Shown piece after piece: positions 3,986 to 59,865 of a stretch of 64,000 nt of DNA. The stretch is from an uncultured delta proteobacterium (GTDB lineage Bacteria; Myxococcota_A; Polyangia; Polyangiales; Polyangiaceae). Each line of letters begins with the position of its first letter. Position 1 is the first letter of the stretch. A program made the position numbers and the translations under genes. Location of the stretch: positions 704,001-768,000 of the forward strand of contig CAWKKR010000008.1 in NCBI GenBank assembly GCA_963850305.1. The letters run 5' to 3'. The notes beneath the pieces were generated by a model. It ran no database searches. It saw only the letters and a program-made list of their open reading frames with translations, and was not told the DNA's origin.

Positions 3986-8107
<4,122 letters not shown>

Positions 8108-11669: not shown

Positions 11670-11742
11670 CAGGGGCGGAGAGACTCGAACTCCCGACCCG
11701 CGGATTTGGAATCCGCTGCTCTACCAACTGAGCTACGCCCCT
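11670..11742 (-). tRNA. tRNA-Trp(CCA)
   Basis: AGGGGCGTAGCTCAGTTGGTAGAGC...GCGGA-TTCCAAA-TCCGC...GTTCGAG...CGCCCCTG; 3' CCA not encoded (CCG follows). Confidence 0.97.
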
Positions 11743-11893
11743 TCGCACGGAAGTCTCGCTTGCTTCGACCTCAGGGCCACCTCGGTGCTCTCGGTGCTCG
11801 GCGCGCATTCGCACGCTTCCGCGCCTCACCCACCGATCTGACCCTGATTTCTGTGCAATCGAACCTTCCGCCGTTGGTTTTTCCTTCGTGTCT

Positions 11894-12076
11894 TTACTTT
11901 GTTTCTTCGTGGACCGTGTGGGTGTCGCAGGCTTTGCAGAATTTCTTGAGTTTCAGGGGCGGAGAGCCATCTTTTCGAGTTTTCGTCGTCTTGTAGTTGC
12001 GCCGATGGCAAACGGAGCACGCGAGCGCGATGCTGATTCTTCGATTTTCGTTCCTGATGCCCCGGCGCTGCTCCAA
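11894..12076 (-). CDS. rpmG: 50S ribosomal protein L33 (Zn-ribbon type, two CxxC)
   Basis: IALACSVCHRRNYKTTK...LKLKKFCKACDTHTVHEETK; start codon uncertain (TTG). Confidence 0.95.
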   Translation of the reverse strand: MEQRRGIRNENRRISIALACSVCHRRNYKTTKTRKDGSPPLKLKKFCKACDTHTVHEETK

Positions 12077-12086
12077 GCGGTGTCCG

Positions 12087-13277
<1,191 letters not shown>

Positions 13278-13324
13278 CGTCGCTTACCTTGTCCGCTGTC
13301 GTTTGCTAGGGTTTTGGTCTTTCG

Positions 13325-13397
13325 AGCCCACCACCAGGATTGAACTGGTGACCTCGTCCTTACCAAGGACGTGCTCTACCAACTGAGCTAGGTGGGC
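13325..13397 (-). tRNA. tRNA-Thr(GGT)
   Basis: GCCCACCTAGCTCAGTTGGTAGAGCACGTCCTTGGTAAGGACG...GTTCAATCC; cloverleaf directly upstream of tuf. Confidence 0.97.
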
Positions 13398-13404
13398 GCT
13401 GGGC

Positions 13405-13480
13405 TGGAGCGGGAGACCGGGTTCGAACCGGCGACGTTCAGCTTGGAAGGCTGACGCTCTACCAACTGAGCTACTCCCGC
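13405..13480 (-). tRNA. tRNA-Gly(TCC)
   Basis: GCGGGAGTAGCTCAG...CAGCCTTCCAAGCTG...GTTCGAACC...CCGCTCCA. Confidence 0.97.
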
Positions 13481-13575
13481 CTGAGTTCTGAGCCGCTGGT
13501 GCCCGGCTCGTCGGCCTGAGTTGTCCTTCGATGCTTCTTGGTGGTCCTCCGGAGTTTTCGCCCATCTCTGGAGGG

Positions 13576-13658
13576 TGGAGGGTGATGGATTCGAACCAAC
13601 GTAGGCTTGCGCCGGCAGGTTTACAGCCTGCTCCCTTTGGCCACTCGGGCAACCCTCC
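13576..13658 (-). tRNA. tRNA-Tyr(GTA)
   Basis: GGAGGGTTGCCCGAGTGGCCAAAGGGAGCAGGCTGTAAACCTGC, long variable arm, GTTCGAATCC. Confidence 0.96.
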
Positions 13659-13745
13659 GGACTTGAAACTAATTCCTTCTTCCTATTCAGATTTTCGTGA
13701 AGCACGACGCCGGAACTTTGGGTGAAGTGAGCCGGGCCAGTTTCG

Positions 13746-13818
13746 AGCTGGCGAGGGGACTCGAACCCCTAACCGCCTGTTTACAAAACAGGTGCTCTAC
13801 CGGTTGAGCTACGCCAGC
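13746..13818 (-). tRNA. tRNA-Thr(TGT)
   Basis: GCTGGCGTAGCTCAACCGGTAGAGCACCTGTTTTGTAAACAGG...GTTCGAGTCC; canonical Thr-Tyr-Gly-Thr-tuf order. Confidence 0.97.
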
Positions 13819-50391: not shown

Positions 50392-50511
50392 CCGCGCATT
50401 GTACGGGAAACCAGGGCGGCGTGGTTCTTCACGAAACCGGGCGTGCACTGCAACGCGTCCGGTTCGGTGCTACTTCCGGGCGCGTTGTCCTCGCCGAGCT
50501 CACCCTTGCCG

Positions 50512-51517
50512 ATGGTGCGTCCCCTCGATCGTCTGGGCCGCGCACTCGAAGATCTACGGATCTCGGTGACGGACCGGTGCAACTTTCGCTGCCCTTATTG
50601 CATGCCGCGGGCCGCGTTCGGCGACGGCCATCGGTTCCTCTCGAACCCGGAGCTATTGACCATCCACGAGATCGCCCGTGTCGCCCGCGTGTTCGCCGGG
50701 CTCGGCGTCCGCAAGCTCCGGCTGACCGGGGGCGAGCCGCTGCTTCGCGCGGATTTGCCGGACCTCGTCGAGCTCCTCGCGACGATCCCGGACTGTGACC
50801 TTGCCTTGACGACGAACGGCGCGCTGCTCGAGCGGCGCGCCGCCGAGCTCGCGCGCGCGGGCCTCCGCCGCGTCACGGTGAGTCTGGACTCCCTCGACGC
50901 GCACGTCTTTCGAACCATGAGCGACTCGGACGTCCCGGTGACCGATGTCCTACGCGGCATCGACGCGGCGCTGGCCGCGGGCCTGGCGCCCGTGAAACTC
51001 AACGCCGTCGTCCGCCGCGGCGTGAACGACGCGACCGTCGTCGAGCTCGCCCGGCGCTTCCGCGGCACCGGCGTCGTGGTCCGCTTCATCGAGTACATGG
51101 ACGTCGGCACGACCAACCACTGGAGCGAACGAGACGTGGTTTCCGGCAAAGGAGATCGTCGACCGGATCGACGCGACCCTGCCGCTCGAACCCGTCGAAC
51201 CGAGCTACGCCGGAGAGGTCGCGCGCCGGTACCGATACCGCGACGGCGGCGGGGAAATCGGCATCGTGGCATCCGTCACCCAGCCGTTCTGCGGCGCTTG
51301 CACCCGCGCGCGTCTCTCCGCCGACGGCCGCCTCTACACGTGCCTCTTCGCGACGCGCGGAGTGGACCTTCGGCACCTGCTCCGGGACTCCGGGGACGAC
51401 GGCGTCGTGGAGCGCGCAATCCACCAGGCCTGGCGCGAGCGCGAAGACCGCTACTCCGAACTCCGCACCGAGCTGGCGACCGCGCCGAAGATCGAGATGA
51501 GCTACATCGGGGGATGA
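50512..51517 (+). CDS. moaA: GTP 3',8-cyclase, frameshift at AAA 51148-51150
   Basis: LRISVTDRCNFRCPYCMP, RLTGGEPLLR, RFIEYMDVG; C-terminal PFCGACTRARLSADG..C..MSYIGG in the +1 frame. Confidence 0.93.
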
Positions 51518-51670: not shown

Positions 51671-52675
51671 GTGGACGTCAACGCTCTCATCGATGCCATC
51701 GTGCGGCAAACCACGGTGCTCATCGCGCAGCTCGCGACGGCGACGGGCGGGCGCGCGCCGCTCGTCAACACCGCGAATCGGGTCTTCGTCGATCTGGTGC
51801 GGGAGCTCCGGGAGCAGGGCCTCGGTAACAAGGTGATCGCGGATATGTTCGGCCTCGCGCTCCGCACGTACCACGACCGGGTCCGGCGGCTGTCCGAGAG
51901 CACGACCTTTCGCGGGCGCTCGCTCTGGGAAGCGACGCTCGCGTACATCGAAGAGCGCGACGTGGTGCGGCAGGCGGAGGTGCTCGACAGCTTCCAAAAG
52001 GACGACGAGGCCAGCGTGCGCGGCGTGCTGGCGGATCTCGCCGATTCGGGGGTCGTGTTCCGGAGCGGGCGCGGGCCGGCCACGACGTATCGCGCGGCGC
52101 GTCCCGAAGAGCTAGCGGTCGCGAGTCACGGCGACGAGGGCGCGGCGGCGATGCACCTCGTGTGGGTGACCGTGAGCCGGCTCGGCGTCGCGACGGCTCA
52201 AACGATCGCGCAGACGGTCGCGCTGGACGACGCCGCGATCGCGACGGCGCTCGATCGACTCGTGCTCGAGGAACGCGTTGCCTGCGTGGAGCACGGGGGC
52301 GCACGCGAGTATCGAGCGGACCTCTGCGTCATCCCGTATGGCGCCGAGCACGGCTGGGAAGCCGCCGTGTTCGATCATTATCAGGCCGTCGTGACCGCCC
52401 TGTGCACGAAGCTCCGGATGGACTCGGTGTCCGCGGCGCCGGCAGATCGCGTCGGCGGCAGCACCTACGGCTTCAAGGTGTGGGAGGGCCATCCGTACTT
52501 CGACGACGTGACGGGGCTCCTCGCGCGACTGCGGGTCGACGTGAATCGGCTCCGCGAGCAAGTGACGGCGTTCAACGCGGACCATCCGGAGCCCGCGCAG
52601 ACGATCCGCGTGGTGACGTATCTCGGGCAAACGGTGCTCGACTCGGACTCGAACGACGGAAAGGAACGAACATGA
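51671..52675 (+). CDS. Uncharacterised protein with probable HTH/winged-helix regions
   Basis: LIDAIVRQTTVLIAQLAT...GLGNKVIADMFGLALRTY; stop overlaps the serpin start (ATGA). Confidence 0.7.
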   Translation: MDVNALIDAIVRQTTVLIAQLATATGGRAPLVNTANRVFVDLVRELREQGLGNKVIADMFGLALRTYHDRVRRLSESTTFRGRSLWEATLAYIEERDVVRQAEVLDSFQKDDEASVRGVLADLADSGVVFRSGRGPATTYRAARPEELAVASHGDEGAAAMHLVWVTVSRLGVATAQTIAQTVALDDAAIATALDRLVLEERVACVEHGGAREYRADLCVIPYGAEHGWEAAVFDHYQAVVTALCTKLRMDSVSAAPADRVGGSTYGFKVWEGHPYFDDVTGLLARLRVDVNRLREQVTAFNADHPEPAQTIRVVTYLGQTVLDSDSNDGKERT

Positions 52676-54183
52676 CCTGGCGTATCGGTCTGGCAGTGGC
52701 TCTGGCGGCGGCGCTCATCGGCTTCGTCGCGTGCGGGAAGAGCGACGGCGGGGGCGATAGCGAGACCCACTGGCTCAAGACGTGCGCCAGCGATCCGGAT
52801 TGCGGAGGAGACGGCACGTGCCTGTGCAACGTCTGCACGACCGCGTGCACCGTGGGCGGGGCTTGCACTGGGGGACCGCCCGGGAGCTCGTGCGTCGCCG
52901 GAGCGAGCGCGCCGGTTTGCGATGGAGTGACCCCGGTGCCATCGGGCATTTGTTGGTCCGTCGTGGAACAGAGCCGTTCTGACGGCGGAAACGCCAGGAT
53001 CCTTCGCTCGTCGCTCTCGCGCGCGACCCCCGACGACGAAGCGGGCGTGCTCGCCACGACGGTCGCCGCGAACACGACGTTTGCGTTCGACTTGTACCAG
53101 CAGCTCCGGACGACGCCGGGGAATCTCTTCTTCTCGCCGTTCAACATCTCCACGGCGATGGCCATGGCCTGGGCCGGCGCGACCGGACAGACGGCGACCG
53201 AGATCGCGAACGTCTTTCACTTCGCCTCGCCGGCGGTGGAGACGCACCGCGCCTTCAACGCGCTCGACCAATCGCTCGCGAGCGACGCTCCGCACCTCGC
53301 GCTGCACCAGGCGAACGCGGTGTGGACCGATCCGCAGTTTCCGCCGCTCGCGTCGTATCTCGACACGGTCGGGCAATATTACGGCGCGGGCGTCGGAGTC
53401 GTGAACTTCGAGGATCAGCAAAACGCGGCCGATACCATCGACGGCTGGGTATCGAGCGAGACGGAGGGCACCGTCCCGGAGCTGCTGTCCGCGTCGGACC
53501 TGCAGCCAGGGACGCAGCTCGTGCTGACGGCGGCGATTTACTTCGAGGGCTTCTGGGCGAGTCCGTTCGGCCCGAGCGGGACGTACGGCAGCCACTTCAC
53601 GCTCGCAGACGGCACGACCGTACCGGTGCAGATGATGGACCAGACGGAGACCCTCCGCTACGCGGCAACAGCGGACTACGCCGCCGCGAGCATCCCTTAC
53701 GAGACGGTCGGGCAACACCAGTACGAGATGCTCGTCGTGCTCCCGTCGGGAGACCTGGCGTCATTCGAGCCGTCGCTCGACGACTCGCGCTTGAATGCCA
53801 TCATCGCCAGCTTGTCGCCGCAGACTGTCGAGCTAGACGTGCCGCGCACCGACTTCAGGACGAAGCTCAATCTCAGGGACACGCTCAGCGCCATGGGGAT
53901 GCCTACGCCGTTCCTGGAAGGCGGCGGCTTCCTGGCAATGCTCAGCGATCCCGCGGACCTCCTCTACGACGTCGTTCACGACGGCTTTCTGTCGCTCGAT
54001 GAAACGGGGACCACGGCGTCGGGAGCCACCGCGGTCATCGTGGGCGAAGACGGGGGCATTTCGCTCGATCCGCCGCCGCCGCCGCCGTTGCTCGAGCTCG
54101 ATCGGCCGTTCCTCGTCGTGATCCGGGACACGCAGTCCGGGACGGTGCTCTTCCTGGGTCGCGTCGCTAATCCGACGGAGTGA
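52672..54183 (+). CDS. Serpin family lipoprotein with Cys-rich N-terminal domain
   Basis: FVA-C lipobox, NLFFSPFNIS, AIYFEGFW, F....G..V.V.MM, hinge DETGTTASGATA, DRPFLVVIRD...LFLGRVANP. Confidence 0.92.
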   Translation: MTWRIGLAVALAAALIGFVACGKSDGGGDSETHWLKTCASDPDCGGDGTCLCNVCTTACTVGGACTGGPPGSSCVAGASAPVCDGVTPVPSGICWSVVEQSRSDGGNARILRSSLSRATPDDEAGVLATTVAANTTFAFDLYQQLRTTPGNLFFSPFNISTAMAMAWAGATGQTATEIANVFHFASPAVETHRAFNALDQSLASDAPHLALHQANAVWTDPQFPPLASYLDTVGQYYGAGVGVVNFEDQQNAADTIDGWVSSETEGTVPELLSASDLQPGTQLVLTAAIYFEGFWASPFGPSGTYGSHFTLADGTTVPVQMMDQTETLRYAATADYAAASIPYETVGQHQYEMLVVLPSGDLASFEPSLDDSRLNAIIASLSPQTVELDVPRTDFRTKLNLRDTLSAMGMPTPFLEGGGFLAMLSDPADLLYDVVHDGFLSLDETGTTASGATAVIVGEDGGISLDPPPPPPLLELDRPFLVVIRDTQSGTVLFLGRVANPTE

Positions 54184-56970: not shown

Positions 56971-58590
56971 ATGCCGGACGTGCCGCGCCCGGAACCGGCC
57001 ACCAACCCGTTCCATGCGACCAGGGAGACGCAGCTTGCGCTGCTCCTGGCGGTGACACTCGCCGCCGGCGCCTACGTCATCGTTTATCCGTTCACGCTCG
57101 TCCGGTATCCGCCGATCACCGATCTGCCGTTCCACGCGTCGGAGATGTCCATCCTCCGACATTACTTCGATCCGAAGTTTCATTTCCGCGAGCAGTTCTC
57201 GCTGCACCCGCTCGAGGTGCCGTACCTCTCGATGTACGTGATCGGAGCGCTCTTCGCGCTGGTGGTGCCGATCTCCGTCGCGACGAAGCTGATGGCCATC
57301 GCGATGCTCGCACTCGTGCCGGTGGGTCTCGCGGTGCTCTTCTACGGCATGAAGAAGAGTCCGCTGTGGGGGCTGACCGGCCTCGGTTTCATCTGGTGCA
57401 CGGTCACGCAATGGGGGTTCTTGAACTTCATGGGCGCGACCGGGCTCTTCGCGATGAGCATCGGGTTTGCGCTGCTGGTGGCCGACGAGCCGACGAAGCT
57501 GCGCCGCCTCGGGCTGTCGCTCTCGCTCGTGGCCATCTTCTTCACGCACGTGTACCGGTTGCCGTTCGCGCTCGTCGGAGTGCTCGTCGCGGGCGCGCTG
57601 GTGTATCCAGCCACGCGCCGCTTCGCGCCCATCGTGGAGACGCTGTGGCCTGCACTCGCTCTGTTCGTGATCTGGCTCCTGGTACGGCCGCGAGCTCTCG
57701 GTATCGGCATCCACGAGTTCGGCTTTCATCCCGAGCGCGTATCGGAAATCCTCGAGCATCTGTTCGGAGCGTACCTGCCCGTGAACGGTGCCCCGCCGAC
57801 GCCCGAAGGGATCCTCGAGCGCACTCTCGGCGAACGGGTCCTCGGGATGCAGGCGTTCGCGGTGTGCGCAGCGACGCTGCTCTTCTTCGTCGACGGACGG
57901 GCGAAGAACCGATCCCGGCGCGAGCGGCTATGGGCGATCGGCGTCACGGTTCTTCCAGTGCTCTTCGCCGGCGGCCTGTTCCTCGCGTACCTGACGTTAC
58001 CGTTCGAGAGCGGCCTCTGGTTTTACATCTACCCGCGCGAGATGGTCGCGAGCGTCATGTTTCTGGTCGCCGTGGCGCCGGATCTTCCGCGCTCGTTCGT
58101 CGGACGAGGCGCCTTCGCGCTGTTCCTGGCCGCCGCTGCGGTTCCGATGAGTCGGTTCGTGTCGGCCCGTTTTCTGGAGTTCGAAGCGGCCACCGCAGAC
58201 TTCCGAGAGATCGTGGCGGAGGTTCCCGCGGCACCGAAGCTCTTCTATCTCATGTACTGGCTGGGCGACTCGGCGAAGCGCGTTTCTCCGTTCCTGCACC
58301 TGCCGGCATGGATCCAGGCCGAGAAGGGCGGCGCGCTCGATTTCCACTTCGTCCAGTGGCGACACAGTCCAATTCGGTATCGGGTGGGGTCGCCCGACGT
58401 GCCTCCCCCTCTGCCCCAGCGCTTCGAGTGGACCCCTCAATACTTCGATGTGCTCCAGCAGGGATACTGGTTCGACACGTTCCTGGTCCGACACCGCATC
58501 GATCCGCACGAGCTCTTCGATGCGGATCCTGCAATTCACCTGGTGTCGCACCACGGCTCCTGGTGGCTTTATCGCCGGTTCGGGAAATAG
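56971..58590 (+). CDS. Multi-TM membrane protein, possible GT-C-like transferase
   Basis: YPPITDLPFH, WGFLNFM; about 11 hydrophobic segments and a soluble C-terminus. Confidence 0.7.
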   Translation: MPDVPRPEPATNPFHATRETQLALLLAVTLAAGAYVIVYPFTLVRYPPITDLPFHASEMSILRHYFDPKFHFREQFSLHPLEVPYLSMYVIGALFALVVPISVATKLMAIAMLALVPVGLAVLFYGMKKSPLWGLTGLGFIWCTVTQWGFLNFMGATGLFAMSIGFALLVADEPTKLRRLGLSLSLVAIFFTHVYRLPFALVGVLVAGALVYPATRRFAPIVETLWPALALFVIWLLVRPRALGIGIHEFGFHPERVSEILEHLFGAYLPVNGAPPTPEGILERTLGERVLGMQAFAVCAATLLFFVDGRAKNRSRRERLWAIGVTVLPVLFAGGLFLAYLTLPFESGLWFYIYPREMVASVMFLVAVAPDLPRSFVGRGAFALFLAAAAVPMSRFVSARFLEFEAATADFREIVAEVPAAPKLFYLMYWLGDSAKRVSPFLHLPAWIQAEKGGALDFHFVQWRHSPIRYRVGSPDVPPPLPQRFEWTPQYFDVLQQGYWFDTFLVRHRIDPHELFDADPAIHLVSHHGSWWLYRRFGK

Positions 58591-58737
58591 GGCCCCCGAG
58601 CCGGTCGGTCCAGGTCGAACCCCCCGCTTCTCGCTCTCCAGGCGGCGAATGTTTCATGGCCGTGAGCGTTCATTCCACTTCTGAACGCTGGGTTTGGGAC
58701 CTACCGGCTAACTGCGCCAACCCGCGCGGGCCGGGGC

Positions 58738-58753
58738 TGGTACGCCCCGTGCA
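58738..58753 (+). promoter_or_regulatory. Sigma-54 (-24/-12) promoter
   Basis: TGGTACG-CCCC-GTGCA versus consensus TGGCACG-N4-TTGCW; GG(58739-40)-N10-GC(58751-52) spacing exact. Confidence 0.65.
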
Positions 58754-58763
58754 GTAATCCCGC

Positions 58764-59011
58764 GCAAGAGTGCCGCGGTCCAATCGAGGATCGTCGCTCG
58801 AAAGCAAGTCATAGCGACTCGATACGTCCCCCCCTCCGTGCGGGTCGCTATGCAATTCTAGTCATACCGGTTCGACACGTCCCCCCCCTCCGTGCGGACC
58901 GGTATGCATTTATTCCCACAGCGCGGTCAGCCACCCCCTCCCCGGCGGACCGCGCTGTGAACTCGTCGAGAGACTGAACCCGACGGCCCCTCGCGGATCG
59001 GGCGGTTTTTT
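58764..59011 (+). ncRNA. Candidate multi-hairpin sRNA with C-rich loops
   Basis: Hairpins 58810-58852, 58863-58906, 58917-58959 and about 58972-59007, each with a CCCTC-containing loop; compensatory changes between the first two stems; ends in T6. Confidence 0.7.
58972..59011 (+). terminator. Intrinsic terminator-like hairpin plus U-tract
   Basis: GACTG..CCCGA...TCGGG-CGGTT pairing, running into T6 at 59006-59011. Confidence 0.6.
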
Positions 59012-59133
59012 GGTGTCTGACCCGCCGTCCCGCGTGCTTTCGCGCGGCGAGGGCGATAGGTTCGCGGGCCCCCGATGAACCTAGTGAACGCCGCAGCGAC
59101 CCCCGCCGTCGGGCGAGCAGGCGTTTCTCCTCC

Positions 59134-59865
59134 ATGAGCGGAGTGGGGACACGGGCCCTGATCGTCACGCCGACCTACAACGAGCGCGACAACCTCCGCA
59201 CCTTCGTGGATGCGGTCTTCCGTCACGCTCCGGCGGCCCGGATTCTCGTCGTGGACGACGCGTCCCCGGACGGCACGGGGGCCCTCGCGGACGAGCTGGC
59301 CAGACGGGAATCGCGGCTCGCGGTGATGCATCGTCCGCGAAAACTCGGCCTGGGGACCGCCTACGTCGATGCCTTTCGACGAGGACTCTCGGACGACTAC
59401 GACTTCTTCTTCGAGATGGACACGGATCTCTCACACGATCCCAGATACCTTCCGGCATTTTTCGCGGCGCTCGAGAGAGGCGCAGACGTGGCCGTCGGCT
59501 CTCGGAACGTCGCGGGTGGCGGCGTCGAAGGATGGGGAATCGGGCGGCACGCGCTGTCGAAGGGCGGCTCGCTCTACTCACGCGTCGTCCTCGGGGTCGG
59601 AGTTCGGGATCTGACGACGGGGTACAAGGCGTTCACACGTCGAGCGCTGCAGGCCATCGAGCTCGAGCGCGTGCACTCGAGCGGCTACTCCTTCCAGATC
59701 GAAATGACCTTTCGGGCCTTGCGAGCCGGACTCCGCATCGAGGAGGTGCCGATCGTCTTCGTCGACCGGCGCGCCGGGCAGAGCAAGATGGACCGCCGCA
59801 TTTTCATGGAAGCCATCGGCGTCGTCTGGAAGCTGAAGTGGGCCGCGATGCGCGGCGCCGTGTGA
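59134..59865 (+). CDS. Polyprenol-phosphate mannose (hexose) synthase, DPM1/Ppm1-like GT2
   Basis: PTYNERDN, VVDDASPDGTG, KLGLGTAY, EMDTDLSHDP, DLTTGYKAF, GYSFQIEM, FVDRRAGQSKM. Confidence 0.93.
   Translation: MSGVGTRALIVTPTYNERDNLRTFVDAVFRHAPAARILVVDDASPDGTGALADELARRESRLAVMHRPRKLGLGTAYVDAFRRGLSDDYDFFFEMDTDLSHDPRYLPAFFAALERGADVAVGSRNVAGGGVEGWGIGRHALSKGGSLYSRVVLGVGVRDLTTGYKAFTRRALQAIELERVHSSGYSFQIEMTFRALRAGLRIEEVPIVFVDRRAGQSKMDRRIFMEAIGVVWKLKWAAMRGAV

Follow-up and report, generated by a model that had tools for sequence, protein, structure and literature searches.

A sigma-54-type small RNA gene with repeated C-rich hairpins in a Polyangiaceae genome, a probable relative of Pxr

Unpaired C-rich loops are used by the staphylococcal RNAs RNAIII and RsaE as seeds for the Shine–Dalgarno (SD) sequence, and CsrB is a modular protein sponge that works by titration. 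In NfeR1 (ar14; RF02344), one of the cuckoo RNAs, redundant anti-SD loops silence the targets, according to the available part of PMC10746234. The small RNA (sRNA) Pxr (RF01812) is found in Myxococcus xanthus and its relatives, and its activator is PxrR (Nla19/SpdR, MXAN_1078). Pxr, the myxobacterial sRNA studied in most depth, holds back fruiting-body development in Myxococcus while nutrients are plentiful and is processed into long and short forms; the available parts of PMC5684412, PMC5568312, PMC11928866 and PMC8538405 present it as a recent invention confined to Cystobacterineae. A C-to-A change in the loop of its stem-loop 1 was found to abolish function while accumulation was kept (PMC5684412, partial text). 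The direct targets of Pxr are called uncharacterised in the available part of PMC11928866, and a figure legend in 10.1101/2025.09.11.675593 places contacts of Pxr with several mRNAs near the SD sequence. In a literature search that covered little of the subscription press, no description of Pxr-like RNAs in Polyangia was found, nor did the accessible texts contain a description of the PxrR binding site.

The window analysed here, a 64-kb stretch of DNA from a Polyangiaceae genome, contains a gap of 543 bp (58591–59133) between two flanking ORFs, given as 540 bp in the first-pass annotation. The gap holds a sigma-54 box, several hairpins and a run of six T residues (T6, 59006–59011). This stretch is very likely the gene for a small regulatory RNA composed of repeated C-rich hairpins. 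The best explanation overall, to which we assign a probability of about 0.7, is a Pxr-related sRNA with multiplied seed hairpins that blocks ribosome-binding sites. The features of the locus are as follows:

56971–58590, + strand: upstream neighbour, gene for a 539-aa membrane protein (context)
58673–58686, + strand: palindrome, predicted enhancer (upstream activator site) for a PxrR-type activator (match to the family palindrome)
58738–58753, + strand: sigma-54 (−24/−12) promoter TGGTACG-N4-GTGCA (sequence and conservation)
58768–58799, + strand: leader hairpin without a C-rich loop (fold)
58810–58852, + strand: seed hairpin 1, loop UCCCCCCCUC at 58827–58836 (fold, covariation, score with hairpin model R2)
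58863–58906, + strand: seed hairpin 2, loop UCCCCCCCCUC at 58880–58890 (fold, covariation)
58917–58959, + strand: seed hairpin 3, loop ACCCCCUCCCC at 58933–58943 (fold, loci of relatives)
58979–59011, + strand: weak hairpin 4, loop CCCUC, with T6 (fold)
59134–59865, + strand: downstream neighbour, gene for a GT2 glycosyltransferase (PF00535)

The box reads TGGTACG-CCCC-GTGCA (GG-N10-GC), in agreement with the exact spacing reported in the first-pass annotation, and transcription is predicted from it to start near 58764. The four stem-loops described there were all located, with T6 at the end, but the number of equivalent modules is three, accompanied by a leader and a weak terminator. The leader hairpin and the palindrome had been overlooked, while the hairpins and the box themselves stood. 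The element folds at −120.3 kcal/mol (z = −5.66), and none of 200 shuffles was equally stable. Hairpin 1 has a 12–13-bp stem with a small 5′ bulge and a 3-bp apex; hairpin 2 is its tandem duplicate with a period of 53 nt, and the three in-register changes on both arms that had been claimed for this pair were found. In the ensemble, the C-runs of loops 1–3 are unpaired with a probability of about 1, and most positions of loop 4 with a probability of 0.4–0.5.

Hairpin 4 alone gives −11 kcal/mol, has no match to model R2 and was not seen in any of the six same-genus homologues, in which a T-run directly follows the equivalent of hairpin 3. In 33 of 36 loci, at least 5 T occur within the 10 nt after the final C-rich hairpin, and the window locus is among the three exceptions. 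From these sequences, hairpin 3 appears to double as the terminator hairpin in relatives, the T-run having decayed at the window locus. Because this locus lacks a T-run after its last C-rich hairpin, hairpin 4 with T6 is probably a locally recruited substitute terminator and not a seed module. The leader hairpin is probably a degenerate first module. Leaders resembling it are present at two other loci (L043 and L047), and a C-rich hairpin occupies this position in other family loci; RNAalifold gave no consensus pairs for the leader hairpin.

The plus strand is considered the structured one, because G-U pairs outnumber A-C pairs 81 to 29. A CsrA-type reading of the minus strand, which would carry GGA loops, was ruled out by the promoter, the T-run and this asymmetry. 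A coding reading was rejected as well, since the coding score was negative in six of seven loci and the minus-strand ORF of 106 aa that covers the hairpins has no consistent frame in relatives. The data on covariation, promoter and strand agree with the original description of a modular, non-coding, free-standing sigma-54-type RNA gene on the plus strand with exposed C-rich loops.

A BLAST search revealed the element in all six same-genus genomes (6/6), each time behind the gene of the 539-aa membrane protein, with 2, 2, 3, 3, 4 and 6 hairpins per locus; across transcripts, the number of modules ranges from 1 to 6. Among 15 distinct repeats, 5 of 16 pairs were changed on both sides, and the covariation score was higher than in any of 500 shuffles. 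A second hairpin model (R2) was built from 69 hairpins and contains no promoter. In these hairpins, both-side changes were found at 15 of 15 pairs (178 cells versus 53 after shuffling), again with 0 of 500 shuffles as high and with slid controls pairing at 32–44% versus 89%, by a statistic that ignores kinship among hairpins. The covariation claimed from the window sequence is borne out by this analysis. Hairpin 1 scores 57.8 bits with R2 and is itself one of its training rows.

The first hairpin model had matches in 30 of 151 family genomes. With R2, for which no more than 36 candidates per genome were scored, matches were found in at least 68 of 151 family genomes, at least 50 of 151 order genomes and at least 17 of 151 class genomes, the weakest of them including plain terminators. 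Scanning named genomes with a pattern yielded 31 loci, and a proper hairpin is present in 22 of them (15 from Polyangiaceae and seven from hosts named delta-proteobacterium, Myxococcales or proteobacterium); the remaining nine look like chance matches. The Rfam scan proposed in the first-pass annotation gave no family above the cut-off at the locus or in 16 family loci, and over the whole window only five tRNAs scored above it. Five tRNA genes lie on the minus strand at 11670–13818.

The window genome (G000) has two loci of the kind in 6.3 Mb. The second has a single C-rich hairpin (G000:C2:168613–168670) with its own box and palindrome. At this locus (G000:C2:168613–168775, minus strand; L033/L122), a perfect palindrome lies 65 nt before a CGGCAC-type sigma-54 box, and the C-rich hairpin starts near +1 and is followed by a T-run, the predicted RNA being about 55 nt long. 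Nine tandem whole units spaced 380–600 nt apart were observed in another genome (L175, G131:C1:9573000–9580000), each with a palindrome, a sigma-54 box, two C-rich hairpins and a T-run; they resemble the tandem pxr paralogues of Cystobacter. A family genome of 1.8 Mb in a single contig (G031) has one C-rich hairpin RNA with box and palindrome (L226, G031:C1:1490472–1490527) and keeps the PxrR orthologue too. Retention of the RNA in this reduced genome suggests a role beyond fruiting.

The TGG, AC and GC of the box are invariant in seven of seven same-genus loci and in 30 of 30 aligned loci, the latter having been chosen with a box. Since a relaxed box pattern matches 1197 times in the window genome, the box alone is not beyond chance, and its weight comes from its conservation. 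The rpoN gene is present in the genome. Among 37 loci, which were picked with the box but without regard to spacing, 35 have their best match to the palindrome TT(T/G)CA-N4-TG(A/C)AA 64–68 nt ahead of the box. The window copy starts 65 nt before the box and, with 8 of 10 positions matching, is the weakest of the 37. This palindrome is predicted to be the enhancer of a PxrR-type activator.

Model R2 gave 79 matches in 67 loci, one of them being a training hairpin and several sharing a locus. A box was found within 200 nt of 58 of these matches, and box and palindrome together accompany 44. The background at 5000 random genome positions is 6.8% for the box and 0.02% for box plus palindrome, these positions being mostly coding DNA and the intergenic background somewhat higher. 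Many of the other 21 matches belong to one of three kinds: hairpins with a variant box, hairpins further along an array, and hairpins at the end of a contig. The promoter pattern alone matches in 27 of 401 phylum genomes. Its matches precede a C-rich hairpin in 13 of 17 cases inside the order, where three are training loci and one has only a C4 loop, and in 1 of 12 cases outside it. A two-hairpin member from another class of the phylum (L279, G684:C1:199557–199780) was found by the promoter pattern alone. At seven loci (L256, L257, L274, L278, L301, L303 and L309), palindrome and box precede apparent protein-coding genes, and the predicted PxrR regulon may include mRNAs.

A PxrR orthologue with receiver, AAA+ and HTH domains is encoded in the window genome (G000:C1:301248–302597). 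This protein and PxrR of the Pyxidicoccus genome G316 are reciprocal best matches (419 vs 343 bits; 475 vs 389 bits). Both have the recognition helix TTLWRKM, which is absent from the other activators listed for the genome, and a quick tree of 42 proteins unites them in one clade (SH-aLRT 99). The DNA-binding domain of the orthologue was found in 141 of 151 family genomes. An enhancer-binding protein like the two encoded in the window had earlier been suggested as a possible driver of the RNA gene. These two do not group with the PxrR clade and differ in their recognition helices, and they were rejected as activators.

At its own locus (G000:C1:301248–304140, minus strand; L158), the orthologue comes after a gene with PAS, histidine-kinase and receiver domains and before queA and a tgt-like gene, and no sRNA was found behind it there. 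The kinase has the order PAS-HisKA-HATPase-receiver, whereas a GAF domain is present in the partial kinase of G316. The pxrR gene is not adjacent to the RNA gene of the window, the orthologue being located on contig C1, nor was it found within the flanks of the Polyangiales loci checked. In two Polyangiales genomes (L209 and L222), the RNA gene is located directly behind a sigma-54 activator gene other than the PxrR orthologue; this activator has about 31% identity and a different helix.

From promoter and sequence comparisons, it is likely that the element is PxrR-driven and distantly homologous to Pxr. The first-pass annotation could assign no known family, which holds as far as Rfam is concerned, but the evidence favours Pxr over the cuckoo RNAs as the true relative. 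Pxr had been cited there only as a precedent for sigma-54 dependence; the promoter type is indeed shared, but Pxr is now seen as a probable relative itself. The true Pxr was obtained from G316 as a positive control for Rfam (127.1 bits). Its promoter carries the palindrome twice, 92 and 111 nt before the pxr box, and the palindrome-plus-box pattern derived from Polyangiaceae, its gap widened to 50–80 after the pxr spacing had been seen, has a single match in the 11.5-Mb genome of G316, at pxr. In the class of pxr (Myxococcia), this widened pattern has matches in 120 of 201 genomes (119 of 200 without G818), with three control matches. Of the 42 promoters at the 30 loci listed for this class, 39 are followed by a C-run, and a PxrR-type gene adjoins 20 of the 30 loci.

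Stem-loop 1 of Pxr in G316 starts at about +1 and has a 3-bp apex closing a U-C7 loop. The window element has the same architecture (long stem, 3-bp apex, U-C7 loop) with weak sequence similarity, as well as a predicted sigma-54 promoter upstream. An Rfam scan of 20 listed loci scored 10 as Pxr, with 97 down to 42 bits, and missed L284–L291. These eight Myxococcia loci have a pxr-type promoter and a long C-rich first hairpin, mostly with a terminator behind it, and are candidates for unrecognised Pxr homologues. One of them (L291) is located directly behind a PxrR orthologue and has the apex GGU-C8-GCC; the apex of a Polyangiales locus (L199), which scores 48.7 bits with R2, is identical. Judged by sequence, the divergent Myxococcia loci appear to bridge the Polyangia and Pxr hairpin types. 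The apex pairs of Pxr and of the window element are GGU/ACC and ACG/CGU, respectively.

Across the boundary to Pxr, no hairpin model gave a significant result in either direction. The Rfam model of Pxr had no match in the window genome at E ≤ 10 nor in the window region, and a score of at least 80 bits was not reached by the window element. Over 151 phylum genomes, this model gave no match above the cut-off and 18 weak matches that were mostly terminators. R2 gave only 12.2 bits on stem-loop 1 of Pxr and found it neither in G316 nor in the 30 Myxococcia loci; an R2 match in G316 (L127) proved to be a plain terminator. A reverse model (R3) was made from 29 Myxococcia apices with an alignment that was not structure-aware, and it found no family hairpin in five whole genomes. 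On 28 chosen loci, 16 of its 19 matches were family hairpins (14–22 bits), including the copy on C2, and none was a hairpin of the window. Hairpin-level homology to Pxr is not significant by itself.

The following course of events is proposed. The phosphorylated PxrR orthologue would bind the palindrome at 58673–58686 and activate sigma-54 RNA polymerase at 58738. The primary RNA of about 200–250 nt would consist of the leader and three long hairpins, each with a C-run loop like that of Pxr stem-loop 1. The loop, together with the 3′ strand of its 3-bp apex (CCCCUCCGU), would pair with ribosome-binding sites rich in G (GGAGG) on many mRNAs, and this pairing, by analogy with Pxr and from the anti-SD match, would block translation without Hfq. 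Repetition of the hairpin would raise the dose of seeds. The A/U-rich linkers of 8–10 nt might, speculatively, be cut to free single hairpins, in analogy with the processing of Pxr (available part of PMC10217877). Growth-phase or nutrient control, as for Pxr and not necessarily fruiting, would be a likely role.

Pairing at ribosome-binding sites, as judged from described RNAs, is rather likely. The sequence CCCCUCCG is unchanged throughout the 30 first hairpins of the subgroup and contains the anti-SD core of the window genome, whose 16S rRNA ends in CACCUCCUUU. CCUCC occurs in 63 of 76 hairpins; the loops of many distant members are pure C-runs without CCUCC, which fit GGAGG less well. Hfq was not found in the window genome, which is 95% complete. 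GGAGG is located at −16 to −4 of 305 gene starts. When duplex energies were calculated for two loop seeds on 4796 rough gene starts, they followed a smooth distribution driven by GC content, and no target stood out; the downstream gene ranked 362nd of 4796, and the pxrR and kinase genes were unremarkable. Between codons 2–5 of the downstream glycosyltransferase gene (59137–59148) and the hairpin 1 loop, 11 of 12 positions are complementary, probably by chance.

Several other explanations were weighed against a Pxr-related RNA that blocks ribosome-binding sites. The element could be an independent, cuckoo-like anti-SD sRNA that came under PxrR control convergently and has no ancestor in common with Pxr. 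The lack of significant hairpin-level similarity to Pxr and the origin of C-rich loops in other phyla speak for it, as does the fact that the best Rfam matches, although below the cut-off, are alphaproteobacterial (ar14 with 24.2 bits, ar7 with up to 35.6 bits). Convergent recruitment to the PxrR regulon needs more coincidences, however: both RNAs have the same enhancer and type of promoter, a hairpin that begins at about +1 and the same geometry of the apex, graded intermediates exist in both classes, and the strict promoter pattern marks only pxr in G316. We consider such convergence unlikely. Equally unlikely is a CsrB-like sponge, in which the C-run loops would capture a poly(C)-binding protein, with a titration capacity that depends on how many modules there are, a reading that is compatible with homology to Pxr. 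It would account for the C-run, with its length slipping from about 5 to 10, being the sole element common to all members, and for the 1 to 6 modules per transcript and the ninefold repetition of units in G131. The invariance of CCCCUCCG, which equals the anti-SD core, in the 30 first hairpins and the Pxr–mRNA contacts reported near the SD sequence (10.1101/2025.09.11.675593, available part) are evidence against it.

The orientation of the downstream gene bears on whether the element is a cis-acting leader or attenuator of the glycosyltransferase gene. That gene is on the same strand at the window, where the terminator is weak, and a same-strand gene, often sugar-isomerase-like, follows in 16 of 33 scorable loci. 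It is convergent in four loci (two of them same-genus), unclear in 13 and different between lineages; because its orientation varies in this way, a free-standing RNA is preferred. Tandem whole units occur without a gene between them and no alternative fold was seen for the window element, so that a cis-acting role is very improbable. Even less credible is a REP-like DNA repeat or a set of duplicated terminators without RNA function. The hairpins are indeed long GC-rich palindromes in tandem, the last of which often acts as a terminator, but the fixed promoter and enhancer upstream, the strand-specific G-U pairs and the conserved loops on variable stems are at odds with it. The scattered genomic copies that the first-pass annotation named as a sign of such a repeat are likewise not seen, the window genome having two loci only.

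The neighbouring genes were also considered. The 539-aa membrane protein has no Pfam or NCBIfam match, and its Atlas neighbours are unnamed Myxococcota clusters, the sole lead being to PMT-type glycosyltransferases. The downstream GT2 gene, which was presumed to encode a Ppm synthase in the first-pass annotation, was not found beside the RNA gene in the six loci of the genus, although two of these are cut off by the edge of a contig. Elsewhere in the window, a radical-SAM gene (50443–51517) with a MoaA-like start appears to be split over two frames near 51200–51270, possibly through a frameshift or an error in the assembly. At 52162–54183, a 371-aa winged-helix-like gene is followed by one with a serpin domain (PF00079).

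If the family is homologous to Pxr, the PxrR–Pxr circuit would be far older than described, occurring in Polyangia and in the reduced 1.8-Mb genome G031, and would have been co-opted for fruiting and not invented for it. A wider proposal is tentative and has somewhat less than an even chance of being right. In it, Pxr would be one branch of an ancient PxrR-controlled sRNA superfamily that extends over two or more classes of myxobacteria. The Polyangia branch would have multiplied the seed hairpin within a single transcript, to be cut at its A/U-rich linkers into hairpins of about 50 nt, and the number of modules would act as an evolvable dose dial for a global, Hfq-independent blockade of ribosome-binding sites older than fruiting-body development. 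The results provide a predicted site of PxrR binding and a set of well over 100 diverged homologues from which targets could be predicted by comparison, and the 1–6 seed hairpins per transcript are a natural series on module number versus sRNA strength.

A comparison with described systems places the element nearest to Pxr. They have in common the sigma-54 promoter, the palindrome, an orthologous activator in the genome, a long hairpin that bulges on its 5′ side and has an apex of 3 bp and a U-C7 loop, an intrinsic terminator, tandem duplication of whole genes in both groups and hosts without detectable Hfq. Unlike Pxr with its single seed hairpin, the window element has three within a transcript and begins with a leader hairpin; its loop ends in UCC, whereas that of Pxr ends in ACC, and the apex pairs also differ. 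The three-stem-loop layout with a short stem-loop 2 and a non-seed terminator stem-loop 3 is absent, and the terminator hairpin of relatives carries a C-rich loop, which stem-loop 3 of Pxr does not. The gene is unlinked from pxrR and is not located directly downstream of pxrK–pxrR, and its palindrome lies 65 nt upstream as opposed to about 90–110 nt. The host is a member of Polyangiaceae, as are 15 of the 22 named hairpin loci, and not of Cystobacterineae. MXnc1, a candidate sRNA of M. xanthus from TRIC-seq (10.1101/2025.09.11.675593, available part), is similar by description, being myxobacterial, Hfq-independent and reported to pair near the SD sequences of mrpC and pilA. The cuckoo RNAs ar14 and ar7 (RF02342) likewise have several hairpins with near-identical anti-SD loops on divergent stems, a combination also observed here, and the redundant SD-blocking seeds of NfeR1 are the best working model for the window modules (PMC10746234, available part). 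However, the cuckoo loop motif CCUCCUCCC, as defined in that source, occurs in none of the 69 family hairpins, NfeR1 has a sigma-70 promoter (same source) where the window element has a sigma-54 box, the phylum is different, and the ar14 match at the locus (24.2 bits, E 0.077) is below the cut-off of 58.8 bits. The element would work like Pxr and like the cuckoo RNAs but is not one of the latter. RNAIII and RsaE gave no Rfam match and are unrelated in promoter, host and architecture. As several defining features are absent, the element falls outside both RF01812 and RF02344 in their present definitions; it is a probable branch of a Pxr superfamily with multiplied seed hairpins.
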